A DNA stretch of 14,154 bases from a virus (Duplodnaviria; Heunggongvirae; Uroviricota; Caudoviricetes): the IMG/VR virus record IMGVR_UViG_3300022594_000256, positions 67,368-81,521 of that record. One strand, written 5' to 3'. Position 1 is the stretch's first letter, and each line of letters starts with the position of its first letter. Made by a program: the position numbers and the translations under genes. This document shows positions 1 through 12,703 of this stretch, in pieces. The notes below the pieces were generated by a model, which made no database searches, was not told the DNA's origin, and worked only from the letters and a program-made list of their open reading frames with translations.

Positions 1-454
1 TTATAGTATCATCTAAGTCAGCATAGGCAAGAAGGTTATTATTCCAACTTGTTCTAGAACCTTTAGTTCCTTTTACTCCACGCAAATATAAAATGTCATT
101 ACGACTTGGAACTTGAGGACTGTCAACATGCCAATCAAATGTATCTTTATCGCCAGCCATACCAGGCTTGCCATTTCTTAATTCAGCAGTAACTCTACAC
201 AATAACCCGTCTGAATCTATAGCATAGTCCGGAAACAACGGATTGTCTTTATCATACAACGGCGTAGGGTTTTTAAACATATGCAGTATTCTTAGCTCTT
301 CCTCAACCGTTAAGAACTGTTTTTTAAAAACAACTATTACATTAGTTGATATAAGTTTTGCTATTGCGTTTATGTCTTCCTGCGTACAAGTTTTTAAATC
401 AATATCAACAAGAGCAGTCCATCCATTGTTGTGTATGCTATAATTAAATGCCAT
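1..454 (-). CDS. TauD/TfdA-family Fe(II)/2-oxoglutarate dioxygenase, N-terminal 151 aa (runs off the left edge; absent from the ORF track)
   Basis: Manual translation from ATG at 454 is open to the edge: MAFNYSIHNNGWTALVDIDLKTCTQEDINAIAKLISTNVIVVFKKQFLTVEEELRILHMFKNP...DTFDWHVDSPQVPSRNDILYLRGVKGTKGSRTSWNNNLLAYADLDDTI. It has TauD-like segments: VVFKKQFLTVEE (cf. VLVFRxQxLTxEQ), WHVD (HxD iron ligands) and GSRTSW...AYADL (cf. GGDTxF...AYxxL). The start overlaps the end of the upstream ORF by 11 nt. Confidence 0.85.
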   Translation of the reverse strand, partial: MAFNYSIHNNGWTALVDIDLKTCTQEDINAIAKLISTNVIVVFKKQFLTVEEELRILHMFKNPTPLYDKDNPLFPDYAIDSDGLLCRVTAELRNGKPGMAGDKDTFDWHVDSPQVPSRNDILYLRGVKGTKGSRTSWNNNLLAYADLDDTI

Positions 455-1139
455 GGCCTTTTTCAATTAATTTTTGAATGATTAAATTAGCCAACTCTAC
501 ATGAAAATCTTCGCCGTAGTGTATTTCTAATTTTGTGCATTTCTTTTCTATAGCCCATTCTTCGGCATTTTTATAATTTCCAAAAGTTAACACACTATCT
601 CCAGTTGGAACAAATGACGGCTCGGTACTTTTTAAGTACAGTGGTATTTGTAAAAAATCAGCAGCATGTAACTGACATATTGCATCTACACAAAACATTA
701 ATTGTTTAAGATTATTACGCGGTTGATATATTTCTACAAATGTTCTGTTAACTTCTGATTCAAAGTTATTAGTACCTGCTTGAAAATATTTGTCCTTATC
801 ACAACCTATACCACCATCTGGGCAATATAATTCTGTAAGATCATATCGACCCCAAGAAAACAATACTAAACTATCTGGATGCTCTTGTACTGCTTCCACT
901 AATAATCGTAAGCTTCGATCGTTACTACCGCCAGACATTGCATAATTGTAACAAGGTACATTTAAATAGTCCGCTACCTTTTGCGGAAATGTTAATAACT
1001 TACCAGGAGCATCTAATTCTTCAATAGTTTTTTTTCCTGTTAAGTATGCCCTAGTTCTAAATTGTTCTAATGGTCCAGCTAACTCGCATCCTGCCGGAGT
1101 GCTATCACCAAACGCTAATACTGATTTGATTGTAGACAT
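444..1139 (-). CDS. SGNH/GDSL-like hydrolase (esterase/acyl-transfer fold)
   Basis: Block I LAFGDS with a catalytic-type Ser, block II NYAMSGGSNDRSLR, and C-terminal HYGEDFHVELANLI resembling the HPxxxGHxxxA block. Starts 1 nt after the radical SAM stop. Confidence 0.7.
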   Translation of the reverse strand: MSTIKSVLAFGDSTPAGCELAGPLEQFRTRAYLTGKKTIEELDAPGKLLTFPQKVADYLNVPCYNYAMSGGSNDRSLRLLVEAVQEHPDSLVLFSWGRYDLTELYCPDGGIGCDKDKYFQAGTNNFESEVNRTFVEIYQPRNNLKQLMFCVDAICQLHAADFLQIPLYLKSTEPSFVPTGDSVLTFGNYKNAEEWAIEKKCTKLEIHYGEDFHVELANLIIQKLIEKGHGI

Positions 1140-1140
1140 G

Positions 1141-2655
1141 TTAATTCCTTTGATTGATTTTTTTCAAAATATATTCATTTAAAAACTTTTTATGCGCTTC
1201 CCATGCGTTTAATACGGCAGAGTATTTAGATACGTTAATAGTAGATTTTAAATCAACACTTTTAGTCCCAGCAGCATATTCGGGAAAACTTAGTTGCCAG
1301 CAATCTACATTAAAATCATTAACTACATAATCTTGTAAATCGCCAGATATTCTTTTTGCATCGAAGATGTTCATTGTATCGTGTTCCCATAATACTTCGT
1401 TAGTGGAATAGTTACCTTCCTTCCAATTAAACAATGTAGTAGGGTCACCAAAGAAATCAACTTGACTTGTGCCCATTTTTCTAAGACCATATTTTTGTAA
1501 ATTACGAGCCATTTTACTAACGTTGGTATGATCCTTTTCACGATCGTCTTCTAAGTTTTCAACGATTAACGGAAACATTACTAGAGATTCTGTAATCCAG
1601 TTTTCCTTTAACCATTTCATATTATCGTGCCATTCTTGTTCAACACTATATGGCAACCCTACTATGAAACTTATTGTTCCTCTGTAGGTCTTACCCTGTT
1701 GCTTAAAATAGTCCTTAGTATCCAGCACTAGCTGTTTTACTTTATCCGGGTGCAGTCCCTTGCCTATTATCTTTCCACTTTGATGATTAAAAGTTTCAAT
1801 GCCGTAGTATTGACCTCCAAAGTTCATCCTAGCAAGTTCTTCTATCATTGATCTATTTTGAAATAGATCTGCTCGAATAAATCCGCTAAAGAAAGGATCA
1901 AAGTCTAACTTTTCTACAACATCGGCAAACTTAGAAATTTTTTCTACACGATCATTAAATGTTTCGTCGGCTACGTAGTATCGATCAATACCAAAATTAT
2001 CGTAGTTATATTTCATTTCGTATTCGAAACTTTCAGCAGATCTAGAAGTATCTTCTTTTAAACCTAGAACAGGAAAATTACAGAACGCACACGAAAATTT
2101 ACATCCTCTAGAAAATTCAACTGTTAACCATTCAAATGGTTCTAAGAAATCTCTCTTCTCCATAATGACAGAGTAGTCACCTAAATTAAATGACGGATAA
2201 GCATGTATAGCCTTAATAACTTTTTTCTGTCCAAAGAATGCAGGTTCAAAAATAAGCCCTGATGTAGAGTTCCCTGCAAGAGCCTTAGCTACGGCTAGCA
2301 TAGCTTCTTCTCCGTAACTGTCTACCCATATATCTATATTTTGTGCGGCACTGTGTAATACATTCTGTCCACCTATTACAATTTTAATATGCGGGTATTT
2401 TATTTTTAACCATGCAGTAAAATTAGTTAATGTATCGTTCCAATAGGAAAAGAATGTGCTAAAACCAAAAAATATTGTTTTGCTAGTAACTGACTGTTGC
2501 GTAAACTCTTTTAATTGTTCTAAGGGCCAATGGGCTGCAAAATCAACTACTTCTACATCCATTTCATTTTTTCTTAGATAGGTAGCTATCCTATGAGCTC
2601 CGCTACTGCGTTCCCAAGGATAGTTTCTAGAGGAAAAGATTAAAGCGTGATTCAT
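1141..2655 (-). CDS. Cobalamin (B12)-binding-domain radical SAM enzyme (class B methyltransferase-like)
   Basis: CxxxCxxC motif SRGCKFSCAFCNF. The N-terminal B12-binding Rossmann-like region has SGAHRIATYLR..DVEVVDF, GFSTFF and IVIGG. Core motifs include YVADETFN, GIETFN and ISFIVGLP. 504 aa. Confidence 0.9.
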   Translation of the reverse strand: MNHALIFSSRNYPWERSSGAHRIATYLRKNEMDVEVVDFAAHWPLEQLKEFTQQSVTSKTIFFGFSTFFSYWNDTLTNFTAWLKIKYPHIKIVIGGQNVLHSAAQNIDIWVDSYGEEAMLAVAKALAGNSTSGLIFEPAFFGQKKVIKAIHAYPSFNLGDYSVIMEKRDFLEPFEWLTVEFSRGCKFSCAFCNFPVLGLKEDTSRSAESFEYEMKYNYDNFGIDRYYVADETFNDRVEKISKFADVVEKLDFDPFFSGFIRADLFQNRSMIEELARMNFGGQYYGIETFNHQSGKIIGKGLHPDKVKQLVLDTKDYFKQQGKTYRGTISFIVGLPYSVEQEWHDNMKWLKENWITESLVMFPLIVENLEDDREKDHTNVSKMARNLQKYGLRKMGTSQVDFFGDPTTLFNWKEGNYSTNEVLWEHDTMNIFDAKRISGDLQDYVVNDFNVDCWQLSFPEYAAGTKSVDLKSTINVSKYSAVLNAWEAHKKFLNEYILKKINQRN

Positions 2656-2656
2656 A

Positions 2657-3226
2657 TTATTTTAAAAAATTTTCTAATGGATAGTCGAGATCAAATCCTA
2701 TAGTGGCTGTTAATCTTGGCTCAGACAAATCGGGATTAGTATAGATACCGTGAGCAGTCTTTGTATGGAATACAAAAGGTGCATTAGTTTCTACGTTAGC
2801 AATTTCAATTAGAGGATACTTGTCTTCTATTGTGTAATAAGGATTTCCTTCAGAAGTAAATTCTTCAGTAATTTTATTGCTATTTAAATCAAAAAATTTA
2901 GTAGACGACCCTTGACAGCTATGCACGGGCCATAATATACGATAGTCTAACACACCATGATCAACATGGACTCCACCTGAGAATTTAGGTGGAGTATAGA
3001 ATATTGCAACCATAACAATACGTGCAGGAATTATTTGCTTAGTAGCTAGTTCTAATTCGGGCACATTGTTTAATACATGATCTAAATCTAACGTAACCCA
3101 ACGAACATGATCTTCATTAAGAATATCTGTATGTTTTAAAACATATTGATAGAGTTTTTCACTAACTATCTCATGATTGTTAATATTTAGATAACTGTAG
3201 ATTTTAGGGGCATTATTCGTTGTCAA
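2657..3226 (-). CDS. Fe(II)/2OG-dependent oxygenase-like (DSBH/cupin fold) protein
   Basis: HxD in GVHVDH, distal His in TAHGIY and a C-terminal Arg strand PRLTATIGF. The TTG start has a GAGGT SD-like motif 6 nt upstream and overlaps the previous ORF by 14 nt. Confidence 0.7.
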   Translation of the reverse strand: MTTNNAPKIYSYLNINNHEIVSEKLYQYVLKHTDILNEDHVRWVTLDLDHVLNNVPELELATKQIIPARIVMVAIFYTPPKFSGGVHVDHGVLDYRILWPVHSCQGSSTKFFDLNSNKITEEFTSEGNPYYTIEDKYPLIEIANVETNAPFVFHTKTAHGIYTNPDLSEPRLTATIGFDLDYPLENFLK

Positions 3227-3851
3227 GCAAATACCTCATATCTCCCACACCGGCAATTCCGCCTACTAAAAAAATTCTCATAGTTTCTAAATTCTCAACA
3301 CTATGTATAGAATCAAAAGACATCCAATACCAGTTGTCTTCTTCGAGCGATGCTTCGGCTTGAGGTTCAATTTTACTATACGGAATAGCACAGTAGTCTA
3401 TTATTTCTAAATTTGTAAATTCTTCTTTAGGTTTGTACCATACTGTCTTTGTATCTTTACCGCCAGACTTTAACAGATATTGGAAACCGTTTCTTCTTCT
3501 ATTAACATCATCTAGATGCGGAGCACAATAAGGACCGCCTTCTACAAATAAGAATCCGTAGTATTCAAAAACATTTGTGATATTATGATTTTTTTCTTTA
3601 AAAAAATTTGAAACTTTTTGTTCTAACTCGGGGGACATTGCCATTGCACTAACACCTCCCGACTTTTCATAAAAAAGCATATCTTCGTTTTCCATGTGAT
3701 TGATAGCATCTTTATTTTCAGTTTCAAATCGTCTATGATACAATATTCTGTTTTGTCTTTGTGTTTCAAAAAGCTGCATTGCATTTTCTAAGCACTCTTG
3801 TTTTAGTTCTTCTGATAGGCAAGGCATAGCTATCATATTTTTATAATACAT
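3213..3851 (-). CDS. Fe(II)/2OG-dependent oxygenase-like (DSBH) protein
   Basis: HxD in CAPHLDD, followed by GFQYLLKSGG..TVWY. Distal His in DSIHSVENL and an Arg strand RIFLV. AAGGA SD upstream of the ATG. Confidence 0.7.
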   Translation of the reverse strand: MYYKNMIAMPCLSEELKQECLENAMQLFETQRQNRILYHRRFETENKDAINHMENEDMLFYEKSGGVSAMAMSPELEQKVSNFFKEKNHNITNVFEYYGFLFVEGGPYCAPHLDDVNRRRNGFQYLLKSGGKDTKTVWYKPKEEFTNLEIIDYCAIPYSKIEPQAEASLEEDNWYWMSFDSIHSVENLETMRIFLVGGIAGVGDMRYLLDNE

Positions 3852-3864
3852 AAAATTTCCTTAA

Positions 3865-4644
3865 TTATTTGCTATCGTAGCCTTCTACATCGATTTGTTT
3901 TCTAAATTCATCTGTGAATCGGCCATTAACACGAATTGTATATGTAGGGCGATTCACAGATTCGCCGCCGTGCCAATCTCTTTCGTCCCACCATGCGACT
4001 CTAGTTTCGATATATACTTTTTCTTTAGTTTCAGGATTTATAATATAGAATGGTCTATCACAGTCTGTTTTGATGTGAATGAATTCTGTAATTTGTCCAG
4101 ATAATTGTTCTTCTGGAATTTCAGGATCAAATATTCCTGTAACAGGATCTTCTGGATCGTGATGCTCCCAAGGAATTCCAGTAGCATCTAATGCCATTAT
4201 TGTTGCACTATATAAACTTTTAAAAATGCCAGCAGTTTGTAAACTTTGAATCCACTCAACTAATTTAGGAAAATGTAAACCTACTTCGCCAACACCTTTG
4301 TGTTTATAGTTCTCATCTAGTACTTTATAAACTATGTAGTGATCGTATGCGTGAAGTGAAAATTTCAAATAGGTAGTTAGTTGGTTATAAGTTAAGTCTT
4401 TACCGGCAATCTTTAATGGATCGTCTTCTGGCAACGATTTCCAATAGTTATAAATTTGTGATAGTGGTTTAATTTGTACACCTTGTGCGTGTGGATGTAC
4501 AGTTCCGGGATGATATACTTGTAGACCATAAATTGCAAGTTGATTTGCAGTTGCCATTCCTCTACATATTTCTGGATGCAGAGAATCAAAAACAGTTAAG
4601 TCTATGTGTTTTTGTAAGTCTATAAAGAGTCGATTTCTAATCAT
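3865..4644 (-). CDS. Fe(II)/2OG-dependent oxygenase-like protein (loosely Asp/Asn beta-hydroxylase-like C-terminal domain)
   Basis: HxD in WEHHDP, distal His in DWHGGE and an Arg strand YTIRVNG. First gene of the enzyme operon, with no SD upstream. Confidence 0.6.
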   Translation of the reverse strand: MIRNRLFIDLQKHIDLTVFDSLHPEICRGMATANQLAIYGLQVYHPGTVHPHAQGVQIKPLSQIYNYWKSLPEDDPLKIAGKDLTYNQLTTYLKFSLHAYDHYIVYKVLDENYKHKGVGEVGLHFPKLVEWIQSLQTAGIFKSLYSATIMALDATGIPWEHHDPEDPVTGIFDPEIPEEQLSGQITEFIHIKTDCDRPFYIINPETKEKVYIETRVAWWDERDWHGGESVNRPTYTIRVNGRFTDEFRKQIDVEGYDSK

Positions 4645-4675
4645 GACAATATTTATAAATTGCCATGATTAGAAA
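4634..4675 (-). repeat. Inverted repeat/hairpin with 17-bp stem and 8-nt loop, covering the start codon at 4644
   Basis: Minus strand reads TTTCTAATCATG-G-CAAT [TTATAAAT] ATTG-T-CATGATTAGAAA, i.e. 12 perfect bp, one G-U and 4 bp. Confidence 0.9.
4650..4657 (-). promoter_or_regulatory. T4-type late promoter motif TATAAATA
   Basis: Exact match to the T4 gp55 late consensus, 5 nt upstream of the ATG at 4644, mostly within the hairpin loop. Confidence 0.6.
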
Positions 4676-4682
4676 CTAGTGA

Positions 4683-5807
4683 TTATGGTCCAGTGAATGA
4701 TACCCAGCTAGTACCGTTATAACCCATAAAGTGATTTGTAGTAGAATTGAAAACAATCATGCCAGCCTCTGGTGCTGGATAACCATTTATTTGAGATGTT
4801 GAATAACTTGAAGCTTGGAAAATAGGAGCTCGGAAAGCACCCTTTGAATTAAATGTACATGTATTCAAACCGCCATTATTGTTATTGGTATTTAAATATA
4901 ATGTTGCTCCAGGATTCGAATCAGTCATTGTTGCCGTAGCTTCTAATGAACTTGCAATACCAGAAGTTTGGATATAACCACCGCCGTGATATCCGCCCAT
5001 ACTTAAATTCATTAACCAGTCACCCGGTTGACTATTTGTCGGAGAAGCTATTGTTCCTCTTGAGGAAAAGATATTAAACTGTGGAGTGCTTCCAGGAGTT
5101 CCATCAGCAGATACACCTCTAACCTGTGCAATTTGTTGTGCATTATTTTCAACGTACAATGAACCATTAGAAACAGATAATGTATTGTTAGTAAAAGATA
5201 AATTACTAGCAGTTACTGTAGTAGATGTAACAGTACCAGTAATGTTAATGTTTCCACTTCCAGTAACGTTATGTCCGTTTAATCCTAGGTTAGCACCCAA
5301 TAACGGATTACCGTCTTGACTAATAGCAGTAATTCCTTCAGGAGGTGTAGCCCAACTTAAATTTCCAGAACCGTCAGTTTTAAGATATTGATTAGAATGC
5401 CCAGATTGGCTAGGCAATGTTGTGCCACCACCGCCGCCTGTTACTGTAGCAGTGATTCTATGATCAACATCATCGTATAAAAATGTGATTCCAGTGTTAT
5501 AAGGATTACCGTTTGTTAAAGCCGTAGCAACTGCTGCTTGTGCTCTTGCAGGGGTAAAATACTGATTAGTTGTGCCTTCATTTAAACTATCGCTATTTGT
5601 AGAAGCTAAATGTAAATCTAATTTACCAGTACTTTGATTGTAGTTTACACCACTACCGCCAAGTTGAGAAGCAATATCAATACCACCTGCTGTGATACCA
5701 TCGCCTACGTAAAGTTTGTGACCGTTAGTGGTCCAAATTAATTCTCCAGCCGCAAACGTAATACCGCCGCGTTGTGATTCTGTTCCTCTTCTAATTTTGA
5801 GAGCCAT
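4683..5807 (-). CDS. Virion fibre/tail-fibre-like structural protein with Mtd_N-like N-terminal module
   Basis: The N-terminus LKIRRGTESQR..FAAGELIWTTNGHKLYVGDG matches the major tropism determinant N-terminal/hyaluronidase-N pattern. Common phage fibre motifs follow: SDSLNEGTTNQYFTPARA, LPSQSGHSNQYLKTDGSGNLSW, DGNPLLGANLGLNG, and C-terminal GMIVFNSTTNHFMGYNGTSW. G/S/T/N-rich, with a GGAG SD. Confidence 0.8.
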   Translation of the reverse strand: MALKIRRGTESQRGGITFAAGELIWTTNGHKLYVGDGITAGGIDIASQLGGSGVNYNQSTGKLDLHLASTNSDSLNEGTTNQYFTPARAQAAVATALTNGNPYNTGITFLYDDVDHRITATVTGGGGGTTLPSQSGHSNQYLKTDGSGNLSWATPPEGITAISQDGNPLLGANLGLNGHNVTGSGNINITGTVTSTTVTASNLSFTNNTLSVSNGSLYVENNAQQIAQVRGVSADGTPGSTPQFNIFSSRGTIASPTNSQPGDWLMNLSMGGYHGGGYIQTSGIASSLEATATMTDSNPGATLYLNTNNNNGGLNTCTFNSKGAFRAPIFQASSYSTSQINGYPAPEAGMIVFNSTTNHFMGYNGTSWVSFTGP

Positions 5808-5851
5808 TGTGCTTTCTCCGTTTCTTTGAAGTCGTTTGTGACTAATATACT

Positions 5852-5860
5852 GTATTTAGC
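5852..5860 (-). promoter_or_regulatory. Possible late promoter (GCTAAATAC) for the fibre gene
   Basis: TAAATA core lies between the upstream terminator and the fibre start. It matches only 6 of 8 positions of TATAAATA and the DNA is AT-rich, so support is weak. Confidence 0.35.
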
Positions 5861-5882
5861 GAAAAGAAAAGATAGCACAGCC

Positions 5883-5911
5883 AAAGAAAAAGGGCCCTTA
5901 CGAGCCCTTTT
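5883..5911 (-). terminator. Intrinsic terminator closing the rIIA-rIIB-kinase unit
   Basis: Minus strand AAAAGGGCTC-GTAA-GGGCCCTTTTTCTTT: GC-rich stem, GNRA loop and U-tract, 15 nt after the kinase stop. Confidence 0.9.
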
Positions 5912-6392: not shown

Positions 6393-7238
6393 TTAAGGAT
6401 TATCTGAACTTGGTTGATTTGCAGCGTGTGCAGCCAATGCAGCAGCTACAGCAGCTTCAACCGCAGCTTTAATAGTTGCAGCGTCTACACCGTTAACTGC
6501 GGCAGATTGTTGAACTGGAGCAATGAACGCATCTGCTGCTTCTTTGTTAATTTCTTCAATAACTTCGTAGCGGCAAGCACGACCCTTTGTTGAATGATAG
6601 TCAGCTGGAATGCTAACAACATCACGTGGGTTGATCTTAAGGATAACTGTACGGCTATCGCTTCCACCGAAGTGTTTCAAATAGTCCTTAGAACAGAAGT
6701 GCAAACCAGTTGAGCAAGTGCGGTTAGCATCGTCATCAACTTCGTTACGTTCCATTTCAACAACAGTACCTACGCTATTATCCATAGTACCACTGTGGAT
6801 ATCTTTGTAGTCATTGCGAATTTTCTTGTAAGCCAAGAAGTGACCATCTGCCGTAATTGGCAAGTCGCCTTTTTCCAAGAAGCTGTACAATTCGTCAACA
6901 GCACGTTTGCTTGGGTTCTGCATCAAGTTTTCCATGAAGTTAACCATTGGTTCAACAGGGAAACCTTCTTGATACATCTCAACAAACTTGCCTGCCAAGT
7001 AGTTGTGGAACTCTTTACCTTTCCAGAACAACTTGTCGCCTTGGACTTCAACGTTACCTTGACCGTAGTTAAGGATAACTTTTTTAGGTTCAACTAGATC
7101 CTGTACAGAATCCCAGTCGTTATTTTTAATAGCGTCTTTGATCTTGTCATAGGAAATATGAGTCGAACCAATAGTGTGGCTGTTATTGCCAATTACAATA
7201 ACAATGTTTTTGCCTTGAATCAAATATGGGAATGCCAT
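6393..7238 (-). CDS. rIIB: rIIB-like protein
   Basis: Conserved rIIB core LPITADGHFLAYK, GTVVEMERNEVDDD..TCSTGLHFCS and KINPRDVVSIP.DY..TKGRACRYEV. Directly downstream of rIIA. Confidence 0.9.
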   Translation of the reverse strand: MAFPYLIQGKNIVIVIGNNSHTIGSTHISYDKIKDAIKNNDWDSVQDLVEPKKVILNYGQGNVEVQGDKLFWKGKEFHNYLAGKFVEMYQEGFPVEPMVNFMENLMQNPSKRAVDELYSFLEKGDLPITADGHFLAYKKIRNDYKDIHSGTMDNSVGTVVEMERNEVDDDANRTCSTGLHFCSKDYLKHFGGSDSRTVILKINPRDVVSIPADYHSTKGRACRYEVIEEINKEAADAFIAPVQQSAAVNGVDAATIKAAVEAAVAAALAAHAANQPSSDNP

Positions 7239-7239
7239 T

Positions 7240-9414
7240 TTAGATGCCTTTCGATTGATCGATTAAATTGATATACTCTGCTACCGCTTCGTCTTCACCG
7301 TACCGGATGCAATTAATCAGCGGATAGCGAGAGATAATTGCATTTGCTTTGTCGCGGAACGCTTGAATTGCTGCCTCTGGGTCAAACACAGTTTTAGGAC
7401 TGTAGCGTTTGATCAATCGGTTAATTGCATAACGATCCGCATCTTTGTCACCAGCATCCTTGAAAGTAGAAACCAACTCAGCGTATGGGCTCTTGCTATC
7501 AACTTTGCTAACAATGCCACTATTATAGCGCAAGAACGTGAAGTTGTCAAGCTCTTTTGCAATAAAGTTGCTAATTAATTTAGCATCAATTTTCTTCAAA
7601 CTCTTGGAAATGTGATCTTCAATGTTGATCCAGTTCTTTTGAGTTTTGATAAACTCAATGTCGCCTTTACGTACACCGTAAATCGAACCAACATTAAGAG
7701 CAGCAATACCGCAGTTTTTCAAATCACGATACAGTTCTTTAATGTCGCCCAGATTGTGAGCACTTTCGAGATTGAAACCACTCAGCGGCATGTAGTAATA
7801 AGTTTGCTTTGCATCAAAGCTATCAGCTTTGCCAGCATCACGCCACACCATGTCTTTCTGACGATAGTAGCCACCATAACCTTTTTCTTCAAGGCGCATA
7901 ATAGTAACGTTCTTGCCCATTGCGCTGCCAGTTTGCTCACGTTCTTTTTCACGCAAGCTGCTAGCACGTAGAATTGCCTTAGTAGGAGGATTACTAATAG
8001 CTTTCATAAATGCACGTACATTCATTGGCTTAGTTTTATCAATTGCGTTAAGAACATACACAATATCAGTAGCACGACCGTAGCCTGTACCTTTCTGCTC
8101 TTCACGGAAGTGGAACTTAGAACGCTCAAGCGCACCAATCTTTGTATCATTGACTACGAACCAAGTAGTGTTGCTAATACGGAATTCGTATGTCTGTGCG
8201 TAATTAGTTTGACCATTTGCATCCTTGTACGCTTCACTGTAGCTTTTCATGTTGCTAACGGTGTTGTTACCTGGAGACTTTTCAAAAGCATTAAGATTAA
8301 TGTTCATGTCAGCCAGTGCTGCAACAGTCAGGCGTGGCGCCTTAGTACGCATACCGTATTGATTGTCAACCAAGTCAAAGTTATTGTCAGCAGCATACTT
8401 TTGAACAGCAGCAGCCCATAGTTGACTACGGCCCTTGTCTGCAAGGTAAATTGCACGTTGCCACTTGTTTTTAATAGCATCTGCTTCTTCTGCAATCTTG
8501 TCAGCAAGAATAGCATTAACCTCTTCCAACTTACGTTTAATGCTGTCAATCGTTTGTGGAATGTAGCTCAAGCCTTCGCGTGATGCTTGGAAGTCCAATT
8601 CACCAATAGCAAATTCCATAACCAGGTTACAATCCAGCAAGTCCTTCAATTCACCCAAGTTCTTTTCAACGTTAGGAATTTGAATTGGGTAAGCAATATT
8701 ACCCATGATTGCAGTGCTGTGATAACCGTGACGGCGAGCAGCGTGTACGCCAGGAATGATGTCTTTGGTTTCGTATTCTACTTCATAGAAGTCAAAGTTG
8801 CTAACACCACTGACTACAGGACGATGTTTAAACCACTTGTAAACAGAGTGTGCTTCGTCGTGAAATTTGCTGAAATCCCAACGATCTTCAACTGAAAACT
8901 TAACTTCAACGCCGTTAGGTTCATCAGTTGTTTCTTCCATCATCAACGCAATTGACGGGACTCCTTGGTCGTTGATGAATGCTGAGTAGATGCGCTTCGA
9001 GTTATCTTGAATCGCGGTAACCGTAAAGTTATCAGTATAAGCAAAGGGAGACTTACTGCCCAAACCAAGAGCACCAATAAATTCATTGGAAGTTGTTTTA
9101 GTACTCTCAAAGTAAGTTGTGTAAATGTTTTTAACTTGTTCATGATTAAGTCCTGTGCCGTAGTCGCGGATTGAAAACCAAGGTTCTAATTGATTTGGGA
9201 GATGCACATCATATGGAGTGTCTACTTTGCCAGCAGCAACATGACTGTCAATTGCATTGCATGACAGTTCACGGATGATGGCTTTAATCTTGTTAGCATA
9301 CAAACCGCTAGACAGAATGTTAAATGCCTTAGCAGAATTACGAATACGGAACTCACCAATCTCACTAACGTTGCTCATGATAGCTTCGTTTTGTGGTGCA
9401 TTGTTGATAATCAT
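7240..9414 (-). CDS. rIIA: rIIA-like protein (N-terminal GHKL/HATPase domain)
   Basis: GHKL motifs IIRELSCNAIDSH, IRDYGTGL and IGALGLGSKSPFAY. 724 aa, paired with rIIB. Confidence 0.9.
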   Translation of the reverse strand: MIINNAPQNEAIMSNVSEIGEFRIRNSAKAFNILSSGLYANKIKAIIRELSCNAIDSHVAAGKVDTPYDVHLPNQLEPWFSIRDYGTGLNHEQVKNIYTTYFESTKTTSNEFIGALGLGSKSPFAYTDNFTVTAIQDNSKRIYSAFINDQGVPSIALMMEETTDEPNGVEVKFSVEDRWDFSKFHDEAHSVYKWFKHRPVVSGVSNFDFYEVEYETKDIIPGVHAARRHGYHSTAIMGNIAYPIQIPNVEKNLGELKDLLDCNLVMEFAIGELDFQASREGLSYIPQTIDSIKRKLEEVNAILADKIAEEADAIKNKWQRAIYLADKGRSQLWAAAVQKYAADNNFDLVDNQYGMRTKAPRLTVAALADMNINLNAFEKSPGNNTVSNMKSYSEAYKDANGQTNYAQTYEFRISNTTWFVVNDTKIGALERSKFHFREEQKGTGYGRATDIVYVLNAIDKTKPMNVRAFMKAISNPPTKAILRASSLREKEREQTGSAMGKNVTIMRLEEKGYGGYYRQKDMVWRDAGKADSFDAKQTYYYMPLSGFNLESAHNLGDIKELYRDLKNCGIAALNVGSIYGVRKGDIEFIKTQKNWINIEDHISKSLKKIDAKLISNFIAKELDNFTFLRYNSGIVSKVDSKSPYAELVSTFKDAGDKDADRYAINRLIKRYSPKTVFDPEAAIQAFRDKANAIISRYPLINCIRYGEDEAVAEYINLIDQSKGI

Positions 9415-9455
9415 TTGTAAGCCTTTCTGTGCCTGTGTGTTTAATTTAAGTATGT

Positions 9456-9484
9456 ATTATACTGCCAAAATTCCAGCTTGTCAA
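9456..9484 (-). promoter_or_regulatory. Sigma70-type promoter P1 for rIIA-rIIB-kinase
   Basis: TTGACA-agctggaattttggcag(17)-TATAAT, a perfect consensus. Confidence 0.9.
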
Positions 9485-9485
9485 C

Positions 9486-9743
9486 TCAATATGCGCAATG
9501 AATTACAAGTTTTTTAACATTTGGTATTTGGATGTTAGGCTCGTAAACAGCCTGTTCACCGTCCCAGCCATCTTCGCAATAGTCTGGGTGATCAGGTTGG
9601 ATGTGAGTGAACAGGACATCTTTACCTGTTTTGTGGCTTTTAAGCAATAGTGCTGGAGGAAAGCGTCCTGTATGCATACTAGAAAGTAAAAGGGTTTTAG
9701 TTTCTTTTTTGAACTCGCAAAGTGCAAGGCATACAGTTTTCAT
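9486..9743 (-). CDS. Hypothetical protein, 85 aa
   Basis: AGGAG SD before the ATG and its own perfect promoter upstream. It fills the gap between promoters. No recognisable family (contains CEDGWDGEQAVY). Confidence 0.75.
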   Translation of the reverse strand: MKTVCLALCEFKKETKTLLLSSMHTGRFPPALLLKSHKTGKDVLFTHIQPDHPDYCEDGWDGEQAVYEPNIQIPNVKKLVIHCAY

Positions 9744-9776
9744 TTAGTTCGCTCCTAACTGTTAAACAATGTGTGT

Positions 9777-9805
9777 ATTATACAGCCAAAATGTTCATTT
9801 GTCAA
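9777..9805 (-). promoter_or_regulatory. Sigma70-type promoter P2
   Basis: TTGACA-aatgaacattttggctg(17)-TATAAT. The -35 box contains the TGA stop of the 57-aa ORF. Confidence 0.9.
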
Positions 9806-9975
9806 TAGACTTCTTTAACAATATCAAATTCTTCTTTAGGCCACTTAGTTTTGAATTCTTCTGTTTTAACGTATTCGTTGTAGTCTTTAGCATTAAAGAA
9901 CACCTTAGTAAACTCTGTTTTAAACGAACCTTTTTTATTGATTGTTAGATAAACTGATTTTGCTGTTCCGGCCAT
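9802..9975 (-). CDS. Hypothetical protein, 57 aa (below the ORF-track cutoff)
   Basis: Manual translation MAGTAKSVYLTINKKGSFKTEFTKVFFNAKDYNEYVKTEEFKTKWPKEEFDIVKEVY*. AAAGGA SD, with promoter P3 directly upstream. Confidence 0.8.
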   Translation of the reverse strand: MAGTAKSVYLTINKKGSFKTEFTKVFFNAKDYNEYVKTEEFKTKWPKEEFDIVKEVY

Positions 9976-10002
9976 TTTGTGTTCCTTTGTAATTAAGTTT
10001 AT

Positions 10003-10031
10003 ATTGTACTGCCAAAAAAATAGCCCGTCAA
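10003..10031 (-). promoter_or_regulatory. Sigma70-type promoter P3
   Basis: TTGACG-ggctatttttttggcag(17)-TACAAT, one mismatch in each box. Confidence 0.8.
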
Positions 10032-10046
10032 CTAGACGAGCTATTT
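10014..10046 (-). terminator. Intrinsic terminator after the AAA ATPase, overlapping promoter P3
   Basis: AAATAGCTCGTC-TAGTT-GACGGGCTATTTTTTT: 12-bp stem with one G-U, and a run of 7 U. Confidence 0.85.
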
Positions 10047-10067
10047 GAGTTGTATTTCTACAACATA

Positions 10068-11144
10068 TTAAAATGCATCCCAGTACTTGTAAGTTTGTTC
10101 TTTAACTTTAGTAAGAACAAGTGTAGTACCGTCTGTATTTGAAAATACGTACTTAGTACCGTTGTCGTCGATTTTCTTAAGTTGGTTAGGTTCAAAAACC
10201 TTTGATTCCCAATCCCAGATTTCTTCGCCGTCTTCGTCTTTCTCGAACGCCTTGTAGTTAATGTGGACACGCTTGTTAAGCGGATTGCCCTGCCATTCTT
10301 TTTCGTCGAAATTGGTTTCAGCCATTTCTTCGCCATTGATCAGCAGCTTAATCTTGTAGCGTGACTCGTTACCGTACTCAGGCTTAGTATTAAGCATTTG
10401 CATAGCTTCTTGTGGAGTTTCGTTGAAACGGTTCATTTCTTCAACAAGTGCCTTGAGCATGTCAAAGTTGAACTGATCAAACGTACCAGCAATACCTACA
10501 ATCTTTTCGATGTGTTCTTTAGCCTTAAGATTGTCTTCGCAGTATTCACGGATGAAATCTGCTTCAAGGCCCTTGTACTCTAGTGAGTAGAACACACGAC
10601 CTGGACGATTACGCATGTGTGAATTAACACGCCACTTGTCGTTACAAGTAAGGACAAACAACTTTTTAGTTGGGTACACACCGTCAAGCAAGGTCAACAT
10701 CAACTCTTGATCGTGTTCGTCATAAACTTTTTCAAACTCGTCAAACACAACAATCAATGGTTGCTCGATAGATTGAATGAAAGCATTAAATGCTTCACCA
10801 CACCAGGGTTGATTAATAACAATGGTAGGAATGCCTTGCTCGTAGCCTTTTACAGAAAGCATCTTAGCTAGCAAAGTTTTACCAGATCCCTTTTCGCCGG
10901 TAAGCATCACACCGGTAGTAGTAGGGCGATCGTTAAATGCGTAAAGAATACGATCAGCACGTTTGTTAGTGTCACCGTAAATTTTACCACGGATTTCAAA
11001 GTTATCAATTTGTTCGAGATACATTTCACCAGTCATCTCATTCTTCTTGATAACATAGTTACCTGCAGGCAATGCTTCGTGCAAGTCCATAGCTTCTTTT
11101 TTAGAAACTTTGTACATATTGCCCATTTTCAGAAAGTAAGTCAT
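10068..11144 (-). CDS. Single-domain AAA+ ATPase
   Basis: Walker A GEKGSGKT, Walker B IVVFDEFEK, sensor-1 LTCN and arginine finger NRPGR. Confidence 0.85.
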   Translation of the reverse strand: MTYFLKMGNMYKVSKKEAMDLHEALPAGNYVIKKNEMTGEMYLEQIDNFEIRGKIYGDTNKRADRILYAFNDRPTTTGVMLTGEKGSGKTLLAKMLSVKGYEQGIPTIVINQPWCGEAFNAFIQSIEQPLIVVFDEFEKVYDEHDQELMLTLLDGVYPTKKLFVLTCNDKWRVNSHMRNRPGRVFYSLEYKGLEADFIREYCEDNLKAKEHIEKIVGIAGTFDQFNFDMLKALVEEMNRFNETPQEAMQMLNTKPEYGNESRYKIKLLINGEEMAETNFDEKEWQGNPLNKRVHINYKAFEKDEDGEEIWDWESKVFEPNQLKKIDDNGTKYVFSNTDGTTLVLTKVKEQTYKYWDAF

Positions 11145-11180
11145 TTTTCGCTCTTTCAGTTGCGTGTTGTTGAAGTTTAC

Positions 11181-11209
11181 ATTATACGATCAAACAGTAG
11201 GGCTGTCAA
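11181..11209 (-). promoter_or_regulatory. Sigma70-type promoter P4 for the AAA ATPase
   Basis: TTGACA-gccctactgtttgatcg(17)-TATAAT, a perfect consensus. Confidence 0.9.
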
Positions 11210-11220
11210 GCCCTACCATT
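11193..11220 (-). terminator. Hairpin after NAMPT (possible terminator) whose loop is the P4 -35 hexamer
   Basis: AATG-GTAGGGC-[TTGACA]-GCCCTAC-TGTT: 7 perfect bp extendable to 11 with two G-U pairs. The U-tract is weak (TGTTTG). Confidence 0.55.
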
Positions 11221-11223
11221 CAA

Positions 11224-12621
11224 TTATTTGCGAGCATTTGCTCGAACTTGCTCAAAAGTAATTTCTTGAACAAGTTTACCGTCTCGGTATACTTCTTCTA
11301 GCATAGAAGTGAATGGACCAAATCCTTTGTCAAACCAACCCTTAGGTTGATCAACAGCAGTTACCCACTCACTACCTGCTTTCCAAAGTTCAATACGTCC
11401 TGCTTTAGATTTCTTACCAGGATCGGTAATAGGATCTTTAACAACATCACGGTCCTCGCCGTTTACAGTAATGCTAGAGCATTTCATAGCAAACTTTTGA
11501 GTATCGCGATCCAACTGTTGAAGCAATGCGCCACCCATACCAAATGCAATGTTATCTGCACTGTAACCGTACACTTGGAATGAACCAAGGATCATACGGA
11601 TAGTGTGTTCGTTAACACCGTCACCTTGGATAAGACGAACGTTGTTTAGGACTTTAAAGCCTTTGCTGTTTACAGTTGATCCAAATTGCTTGTCTAGAAT
11701 TTGAACCAGCTTACGACAGACAATGTCAGGATCACCACTATCTGGACGAATAACAACGGTGGCACCACTATCAATAACCTGTTGACGAAGTTCTTCGCCC
11801 CAAAGTTTAGATGCGGCGTTAAAGACATCATAAGAATCAGACACGACAGCGACAATAGCGCCAGGCTTTGCAAATTGAGTGAGCATGTTATCATAGGCTT
11901 TTACTTCGTTGTCACGACCCCAACTTGTGATGGTGCTGTGTTCTGCGGCAGGAATTGAAAAGCCGCTAACACCAGCGTTATAGAACTCACGAGCATACAA
12001 GATACCGGTAACAGTATCAGTGCCCATGAAGTTAACGAGGTGGGCCGCGCCGCCAATGCCAGCGGACTCAAGGGAACTAACACCGCGAGCACCAAAGTCG
12101 TGTAACTTAAAATCGATAGTAGATGGGTCACCTGTCTTCTCCAATGCGTCAAGAATGACTTGTTTAATTTTCCAGCTCTGTGTTGCTACAGTAGTAGGAT
12201 ACCAAATTGCACGGAGCAAGGCTGTTTCCAACCATGTAGTTAACCAGAAGCATTCTGGATCTGTGTTTTCAATTGTTGCAAGCACCTGCTTGACAGGTAC
12301 AACTGTTCCTTCGGGGACGGCTCGGATAACAACTGGGAGGTATCCATTGTGCTTGTCAAGAATGTACTGCCATCCTGCGCGGTTGAAAGGCTCACCGTGT
12401 GCGGTAAGGATTTCATCAGCCACATCAATGTCTTGTTGTGTGATGGGCTCGAGTAAGTACTCTTTAATGAACGCTTGGAGGCCGAAGAATACAGTCTGAT
12501 CGTAACGTCCGCCTCTTGATTCAATGTAAGAATAAACACCTGTAGTTCCTGCTGGGTATTGTTTGAACATGCTAACTTTGTAGCTGTCAGTGTTGAGAAT
12601 AATATTTTTTGCTAATTTCAT
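11224..12621 (-). CDS. nadV: Nicotinamide phosphoribosyltransferase (NAMPT)
   Basis: Motifs TDSYK, YSYIESRGG, HDFGARG, PAAEHS, VVSDSYD, IRPDSGDP, IQGDG, FGMGGALLQ and KKSKAGR. 465 aa. Confidence 0.95.
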   Translation of the reverse strand: MKLAKNIILNTDSYKVSMFKQYPAGTTGVYSYIESRGGRYDQTVFFGLQAFIKEYLLEPITQQDIDVADEILTAHGEPFNRAGWQYILDKHNGYLPVVIRAVPEGTVVPVKQVLATIENTDPECFWLTTWLETALLRAIWYPTTVATQSWKIKQVILDALEKTGDPSTIDFKLHDFGARGVSSLESAGIGGAAHLVNFMGTDTVTGILYAREFYNAGVSGFSIPAAEHSTITSWGRDNEVKAYDNMLTQFAKPGAIVAVVSDSYDVFNAASKLWGEELRQQVIDSGATVVIRPDSGDPDIVCRKLVQILDKQFGSTVNSKGFKVLNNVRLIQGDGVNEHTIRMILGSFQVYGYSADNIAFGMGGALLQQLDRDTQKFAMKCSSITVNGEDRDVVKDPITDPGKKSKAGRIELWKAGSEWVTAVDQPKGWFDKGFGPFTSMLEEVYRDGKLVQEITFEQVRANARK

Positions 12622-12664
12622 GATAAACTCCTTATCAGTTTGTTGCCACCAGTCTATCTAGTGG
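12621..12664 (-). promoter_or_regulatory. Structured 5-prime leader of NAMPT (two hairpins, the second covering SD and start)
   Basis: CCACTAG-ATAGA-CTGGTGG (12664-12646) and TGATAAG-GAG-TTTATCA (12637-12621). The second includes the GGAG SD and the A of the ATG. Confidence 0.45.
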
Positions 12665-12674
12665 ACTTGTCTTA

Positions 12675-12703
12675 ATTATAACAGATAAACCTATACCTGT
12701 CAA
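12675..12703 (-). promoter_or_regulatory. Sigma70-type promoter P5 for NAMPT
   Basis: TTGACA-ggtataggtttatctgt(17)-TATAAT. The -35 box contains the TGA stop of the macro-domain gene. Confidence 0.9.

Follow-up and report, generated by a model that had tools for sequence, protein, structure and literature searches.

A start codon and a T4-type late promoter core enclosed in a conserved hairpin: candidate promoter-dependent translation of a leaderless phage message

Introduction

Here we asked why the first gene of an enzyme operon in an uncultured phage starts inside a long RNA hairpin whose loop holds the core of a T4-type late promoter, and in which RNA such a start codon would be available to ribosomes. 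The combination of a late promoter with a translation-blocking hairpin is a textbook device of phage T4, where it serves a handful of genes. A preliminary description of the locus had read it as a likely timing switch that could gate the whole operon.

The window, i.e. the complete stretch of 14,154 nt that was analysed, forms the 14-kb end of a viral contig of 81.5 kb (IMG/VR record IMGVR_UViG_3300022594_000256), for which CheckV gives a completeness of 22%, corresponding to a genome of roughly 370 kb. The contig is contained in pond and freshwater metagenome runs and carries rIIA, rIIB, tail-fibre genes and a large radical-SAM/oxygenase island; the source phage is an uncultured, freshwater, T4-like giant phage. 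Among the isolate relatives searched, the best match to its rIIA is about 29% identical, and no phage record matches the 259-aa product of the first operon gene. All genes discussed lie on the minus strand (Table 1).

Five perfect sigma70 promoters (12/12 matches to TTGACA-17-TATAAT, minus strand, at 12703, 11209, 9805, 9484 and 7550) sit in the rII/NAD-salvage early region (window 7522-12703); promoter-like sites as a whole are no more numerous than in shuffles, and what is striking is the five perfect matches on one strand. Taken together with the separate late-type box described below, they suggest host-type early promoters and a distinct late box, as in T4.

Table 1. Features of the locus, in positions of the window.
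Feature	Position	Strand	Basis or remark
5' hairpin arm (anti-AUG arm)	4659..4676	minus	folds and inverted repeat
3' hairpin arm	4633..4650	minus	covers 5-nt spacer, AUG and next 3 codons
TATAAATA, putative late promoter core (-13 to -6)	4650..4657	minus	window's only copy
Predicted transcription start (+1), A of AUG	4644	minus	deduced from box position and 5-nt spacer
First operon gene, 259 aa, Fe(II)/2-oxoglutarate oxygenase-like fold	3865..4644	minus	fold search
Downstream co-oriented enzyme genes	1..3851	minus	no further late box
B12/radical SAM gene	1141-2655	minus	
Tail-fibre-like gene, 374 aa	4683..5807	minus	Pfam Mtd_N at residues 4-39, E 6e-07
CTAAATA, variant late-type box	5853..5859	minus	45 nt before fibre ATG; relatives have ATAAATA
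Intrinsic terminator	5883..5911	minus	G+C-rich 10-bp stem and U run
rIIB homologue	6393-7238	minus	
rIIA homologue	7240-9414	minus	

Results

The hairpin at the start codon

The gap between the fibre stop codon (4685-4683) and the ATG of the first operon gene (4644-4642) comprises the 38 nt 4645-4682 and contains, as described beforehand, a 12-nt antisense copy of the start region: TTTCTAATCATG (4675-4664) matches the reverse complement of CATGATTAGAAA (4645-4634) at every position. RNAfold pairs 4676-4659 with 4650-4633, starting 6 nt past the fibre stop codon. The 17 bp of the preliminary description were found in this stem, to which RNAfold adds a terminal G-U pair, giving 18 pairs, G-U pairs included, with a free energy of -22.4 kcal/mol around an 8-nt loop, UUAUAAAU. 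None of 200 dinucleotide shuffles folded as well (mean -6.7; z = -7.2), the same 18-bp stem formed in 98-nt and 201-nt contexts, and no other close inverted repeat in the 14-kb window is as long as this hairpin. In these in silico folds the AUG (4644-4642) is base-paired within the stem, so that the RNAfold check suggested at the outset returned a strong stem with a buried start codon.

The box (4657-4650) is followed by TTGTC and then by the ATG. The previously noted distance of 5 nt is thus exact and there is indeed no Shine-Dalgarno sequence between box and ATG, while the position of the box in the loop holds for all but its last A, which is paired. The box is flanked by the two arms, with the 5' arm (4659-4676) upstream of the predicted +1 (4644). 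The first 60 nt of the predicted late transcript (4585-4644) are unpaired at nucleotides 1-30 and reach only -4.7 kcal/mol as a whole. Coordinates, fold and repeat therefore confirm what had been seen at this locus.

A 9-codon upstream ORF, which opens at an ATG in the 5' arm (4667-4665) and ends 4 nt past the real ATG, was rejected as a by-product of the palindromic CATG; it is not conserved, being absent where relatives have G-U at this place. A second inverted repeat is found at window positions 3910-3961 (15-nt arms, 93% complementary, 22 nt apart), in the 3' end of the 259-aa gene and just before the Shine-Dalgarno sequence of the next gene.

The box as a probable late promoter

The window contains one copy of TATAAATA against 1.3 expected, which is not above chance, and the significance of the box can therefore only come from genome-wide and comparative analysis. 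On the 81.5-kb contig, ATAAATA occurs 7 times on both strands together, compared to about 25-34 copies expected from Markov models, an overall depletion of 3-5 fold. All 7 copies are intergenic and aimed at a gene start, with non-coding DNA amounting to roughly 10%, and 2 of the 7 genes behind them are tail-fibre/virion genes. In four cases an ATG with a Shine-Dalgarno sequence follows the box at 18-21 nt, and in three an ATG without one follows at 4-5 nt.

For comparison, we analysed two larger contigs whose versions of the enzyme island are up to 70% identical to that of the source phage. Both encode a gp55-family protein (phrog_234, E 2e-22 and 4e-25), and in both the box is 2-3 fold depleted and falls into the same two spacing classes. 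Extending the view to five large related contigs, gp55-family genes were found in three (phrog_234, E 1e-19 to 4e-25), the contigs that bear them having mainly the enzyme island in common with the source phage. On the contig itself, a 22%-complete fragment, a T4 gp55 query (phmmer, tblastn) gave no match, and phrog_234 was absent from it as well as from 15 ortholog fragments of about 10% completeness each; with fragments throughout, these negative results do not speak for a true absence. The source phage may encode a gp55 too, by a link that is indirect. Since the box is depleted, always intergenic and co-oriented, and precedes tail-fibre genes, its earlier reading as a T4-type late promoter is well supported at the level of sequence.

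The distance between box and start codon gives this promoter reading a further consequence. At 17 of 102 sites in these three contigs an ATG follows exactly 5 nt past the box (binomial p 4e-10, with a background of 2.4% per offset), and 15 of the 17 ATGs open ORFs of at least 50 aa; a second, broad peak at 18-21 nt comprises sites at which a Shine-Dalgarno sequence is present. Late boxes of T4 span positions -13 to -6 ('A(-13) in place of T'; PMC2988020), so that a spacer of 5 nt would place +1 on the A of the AUG and yield a leaderless mRNA. By this analogy, we infer that transcription starts exactly at the AUG. The T4 genome (169 kb) contains two ATAAATA-N4-6-ATG strings, neither of which is an annotated start. 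In literature searches of incomplete coverage, no paper pairing 'leaderless' with TATAAATA was found, and queries for leaderless together with late promoter or gp55 returned only irrelevant matches.

Boxes close to start codons also occur in other settings. A 55-aa ORF of phrog_661 (L023:7257-7435; contig 43257-43435, minus) has ATAAATA 4 nt before its ATG, with the box directly past the previous stop codon and without a hairpin. Divergent pairs, in which NTAAATA lies 4-5 nt before each of two ATGs, back to back within about 40 nt, were observed at L023:16270-16330 (contig 52291 minus / 52310 plus) and in L075, L056, L057, L076 and L095; the pair at contig 52310 is kept at the orthologous place in two other contigs.

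Conservation of the hairpin and dependence on the upstream gene

Homologues of the 259-aa protein were collected from 19 and subsequently 80 IMG/VR loci. Orthologs carry NATAAATA as the box, and every ortholog locus that combines NATAAATA-N5-ATG with a co-oriented upstream fibre-like gene forms a hairpin with the box in or near its loop. Minimum-free-energy folds pair the complete AUG in 9 of the 11 box-bearing ortholog loci, and fold energies of -45 to +16 average about -15.5 kcal/mol for orthologs with the box, compared to about -6.4 for those without it. Arm sequences differ between relatives, with stems of 7-16 bp, and when the pair table is fitted to each fold, the spacer positions -5 to -1 display 3-5 standard pair types per position. 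In a covariance-model alignment with fixed register, covariation was 0.203 versus 0.141 for shuffled data, of which 5 of 500 reach 0.203, and only 0.05-0.09 with slid partners. A single consensus structure for all orthologs was rejected, as only 60% of cells pair and both loop sizes and registers vary.

At 8 of 11 loci the sense strand gave the better fold, the mean difference to the antisense strand being -3.2 kcal/mol (Wilcoxon p 0.027, this and the other p-values being optimistic and independence overstated, since the loci are phylogenetically related), as in L035 with -16.0 sense and -4.5 antisense, and 17 of 156 stem pairs are G-U. Better sense folds and G-U pairs argue for a structure that acts in the sense RNA and not as a DNA palindrome. 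The compensatory changes in relatives that the preliminary description had suggested looking for were thus found, in the form of varied pair types and of the covariation above, with the G-U pairs in favour of sense RNA.

The closest relatives (L001-L003) have an extra SGNH-like gene between the fibre and 259-aa genes, and here the cassette precedes the extra gene. In L002 the box and spacer are identical and the first gene is a different one, the 5' arm matching only up to the shared ATGA, and in L003 the spacer differs and is compensated. The 5' arm therefore tracks whichever coding sequence follows. The extra gene of these relatives, at about 2230-3001, has a GDS(T) motif, and the cassette has moved with the operon boundary.

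Formation of the hairpin furthermore depends on the orientation of the upstream gene. Among box-bearing orthologs an AUG-pairing hairpin was found in 11 of 14 contexts with a co-oriented upstream gene and in none of 4 divergent ones (Fisher p 0.011). For all 51 box-plus-gene sites of the three contigs we calculated how strongly the initiation region pairs with the 45 nt that precede the predicted start. This pairing across the start averaged -9.6 kcal/mol behind co-oriented genes versus -6.3 kcal/mol (Mann-Whitney p 0.004), and values of -10 or below were reached by 11 of 28 co-oriented sites versus 2 of 23. Sequence comparison thereby supports an occurrence of the hairpin only where read-through from a co-oriented upstream gene would be possible. 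Hairpins as a general trait of leaderless-type sites were rejected (p 0.62 versus control gene starts); they are a subset device, as in T4.

Two further late boxes were located in hairpin loops at L022:15500-15620 and L022:4130-4230 (contig 33577 and 22193, minus), where the 3' arm contains a Shine-Dalgarno sequence and an ATG or is directly followed by them, with duplex energies of -22.7 and -18.8 kcal/mol.

Upstream and downstream genes

Which RNA would carry both arms is determined by the gene upstream. The fibre-like gene is co-oriented with the operon, a terminator scan lists no terminator between it and the hairpin, and in the relatives orthologous fibre-like ORFs likewise precede the cassette. 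In metatranscriptome run X14 about half of the region's words are present, and assembled contigs cover 4621-5094 and 3862-4268, contigs of this kind being unable to show starts, ends or strand and DNA carry-over being possible. The early rIIA-rIIB-kinase unit ends in the terminator at 5883-5911, a short way upstream of the fibre promoter, the succession of terminator and promoter is kept in 9 relatives, and the leader of the fibre gene has a Shine-Dalgarno sequence. Given the fibre gene's own late-type box and the terminator behind the early genes, the main read-through RNA is, as judged from this layout, probably late as well. The switch between early and late times envisaged before is consequently weak, and the device probably distinguishes RNA of its own promoter from RNA that reads through, and not clearly late from early.

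Within window positions 5802-5911 the order of elements is terminator, pyrimidine-rich segment, CTAAATA, leader, Shine-Dalgarno sequence and ATG, and 10 relatives share this layout. The segment upstream of the fibre box can pair with the Shine-Dalgarno region and covers it in all of these relatives; only 5 of 11 loci, the window not among them, pair better than shuffles do (p<0.05).

For the 259-aa protein encoded behind the hairpin, no sequence or profile match was found in Pfam or PDB. Its AlphaFold model (pLDDT 84.7) gave Foldseek matches to PHD2, AsqJ and NMAD-1 of moderate quality (E about 4e-06, TM 0.3-0.45), and H161, D163 and H225 are invariant. Calling the protein 'oxygenase-like' on the basis of this model is reasonable, if not proven. 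A weak GDSL-like gene lies in the window at 444-1139. Genes 2, 3 and 5 of the operon have Shine-Dalgarno sequences of their own, and the hairpin would therefore gate the translation of the first gene only; the cluster-wide gate that had been suggested from coupling of the downstream genes is not upheld.

Discussion

What has been observed is the hairpin with its conservation and its dependence on context, a box that behaves like a promoter, and a spacing fixed at 5 nt. We propose, with reasonable rather than strong confidence, a model in which the promoter-in-hairpin arrangement is a translational gate with leaderless output. Block and release of translation would take place as follows. Read-through RNA from the fibre gene would hold both arms, and its 18-bp helix would bury the AUG, so that ribosomes could not start. 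RNA polymerase with a phage gp55-type late sigma would read TATAAATA in the loop and begin transcription 6 nt past the box, on the A of the AUG. The RNA made from this promoter would be without the 5' arm, would present an unstructured AUG at its 5' end and would be translated as a leaderless mRNA. It should be noted that an internal AUG without a Shine-Dalgarno sequence would be poorly translated anyway, and the need for a lock is therefore not self-evident. Of the interpretation in the preliminary description, the promoter, the hairpin around the AUG and the T4 precedent are retained in this model, and the timing switch and the gate over the whole cluster are given up.

Several other functions of the stem have to be weighed. 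It might mainly serve the fibre mRNA, as a stabiliser of its 3' end or a non-canonical transcript boundary, and overlap the start codon merely due to the 38-nt gap. Such a role would likewise predict hairpins only behind co-oriented genes, it agrees with the hairpin following the fibre stop by 6 nt, and one metatranscriptome contig, a weak indication, extends from the fibre gene across the hairpin and stops 12 nt beyond it. We nevertheless consider it unlikely, since there is no U run past the stem and the terminator scan omits the hairpin, yet the phage has canonical terminators (5883-5911); since even the short stems of relatives (7-10 bp) centre on the box, with the 3' arm always covering spacer and AUG; and since the enrichment with orientation concerns pairing across the start site and not any hairpin that follows a stop codon. 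An intrinsic terminator in the strict sense was rejected: the stem is A/U-rich, continues into UCGACUC without a U run and is unlisted by the terminator scan. RNase III prefers roughly two helical turns of duplex, and the window does offer a near-perfect duplex of 18 bp. That the stem is a site at which RNase III or another processing activity cuts the read-through RNA is still improbable, because the stems of the relatives are only 7-16 bp, which leaves no conserved two-turn duplex, and because a cut inside the stem would not generate a 5'-terminal AUG.

Two further explanations concern the DNA and the box, and we give very little credence to either. The inverted repeat is centred on the promoter, and DNA topology affects T4 late promoters (PMC2988020), as would be expected of a palindrome that functions in DNA, be it as operator of a dimeric regulator or as a cruciform modulating promoter opening. 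The sequences of the arms, however, covary instead of being conserved, a point against a sequence-specific binder, and 17 G-U pairs together with the weaker antisense folds argue against a symmetric DNA structure. ATAAATA, on the other hand, could be an A/U-rich translation signal beside the ATG instead of a promoter, with the hairpin being unrelated to it, in line with boxes that directly precede start codons without a Shine-Dalgarno sequence. But the box is also found 17-29 nt upstream of genes with a normal Shine-Dalgarno sequence, it is strongly avoided elsewhere on both strands, and it is identical to the T4 late core in a group whose related phages encode gp55.

Returning to the translational gate with leaderless output, an extension to the whole clade is possible, and we put it forward tentatively. 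The clade may run a large share of its late programme via leaderless mRNAs from late promoters at a fixed 5-nt distance to the AUG, and may add anti-AUG or anti-Shine-Dalgarno hairpins where read-through is possible, so that a start codon would work only as the 5' end of an RNA. If true, promoter-dependent translation would be a general design rule here, compared to the few special cases in T4. Should mapping confirm the 5' ends, it would follow that an entire class of leaderless messages can arise from gp55-type late transcription, with effects on gene calling and start-site prediction in large phages, and that translation can depend on the promoter from which an RNA originates, even within a late transcription unit. 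The locus also offers a starting point for studying how the unexplained radical-SAM/oxygenase island is expressed.

Comparison with known systems

In T4, the initiation regions of genes e (lysozyme), soc, 49 and I-TevI are sequestered by hairpins in RNA initiated upstream, with a late promoter inside the structure (PMC3014915), a precedent that had been cited correctly for this locus. Common to both is a helix that buries the start region in read-through RNA (here in silico), a TATAAATA promoter whose own transcripts would be without the 5' arm, and conservation among relatives. In T4, however, late transcripts retain a leader that includes a Shine-Dalgarno sequence, and what the helix hides is this sequence and/or the AUG, whereas here a Shine-Dalgarno sequence is absent, only AUG and spacer are hidden, and the start is predicted on the AUG itself. 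The upstream RNA is early or middle RNA in T4, and probably late fibre mRNA plus terminator leak here.

T4 late promoters have the 8-bp core TATAAATA at -13 to -6, where variants in the first positions are tolerated, and this core is recognised by gp55 together with gp33 and the clamp gp45 (PMC2988020). The boxes described here have the identical core, precede structural genes, are avoided elsewhere and are accompanied by a gp55-family gene in related phages. They differ in that a large class lies exactly 5 nt before an ATG, compared to none at annotated starts in T4, and in that gp55 was not found on the 22%-complete contig. Leaderless mRNAs of phages and bacteria, such as lambda cI transcribed from PRM, are recognised by their 5'-terminal AUG (cited in PMC5312081, ref 27). 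With these the predicted messages share a 5'-terminal AUG and the lack of both leader and Shine-Dalgarno sequence, and they would be distinct as a regular class made from a T4-type late promoter and combined with an anti-AUG hairpin.

By analogy, the hairpin can therefore be regarded as a leaderless variant of the control known from T4 e, soc and I-TevI; the present analysis contributes the anti-AUG hairpin and its dependence on the orientation of the upstream gene. The same T4 logic would thus operate, in leaderless form, in a distant uncultured giant phage, with the promoter placed one promoter-to-start distance before the AUG.
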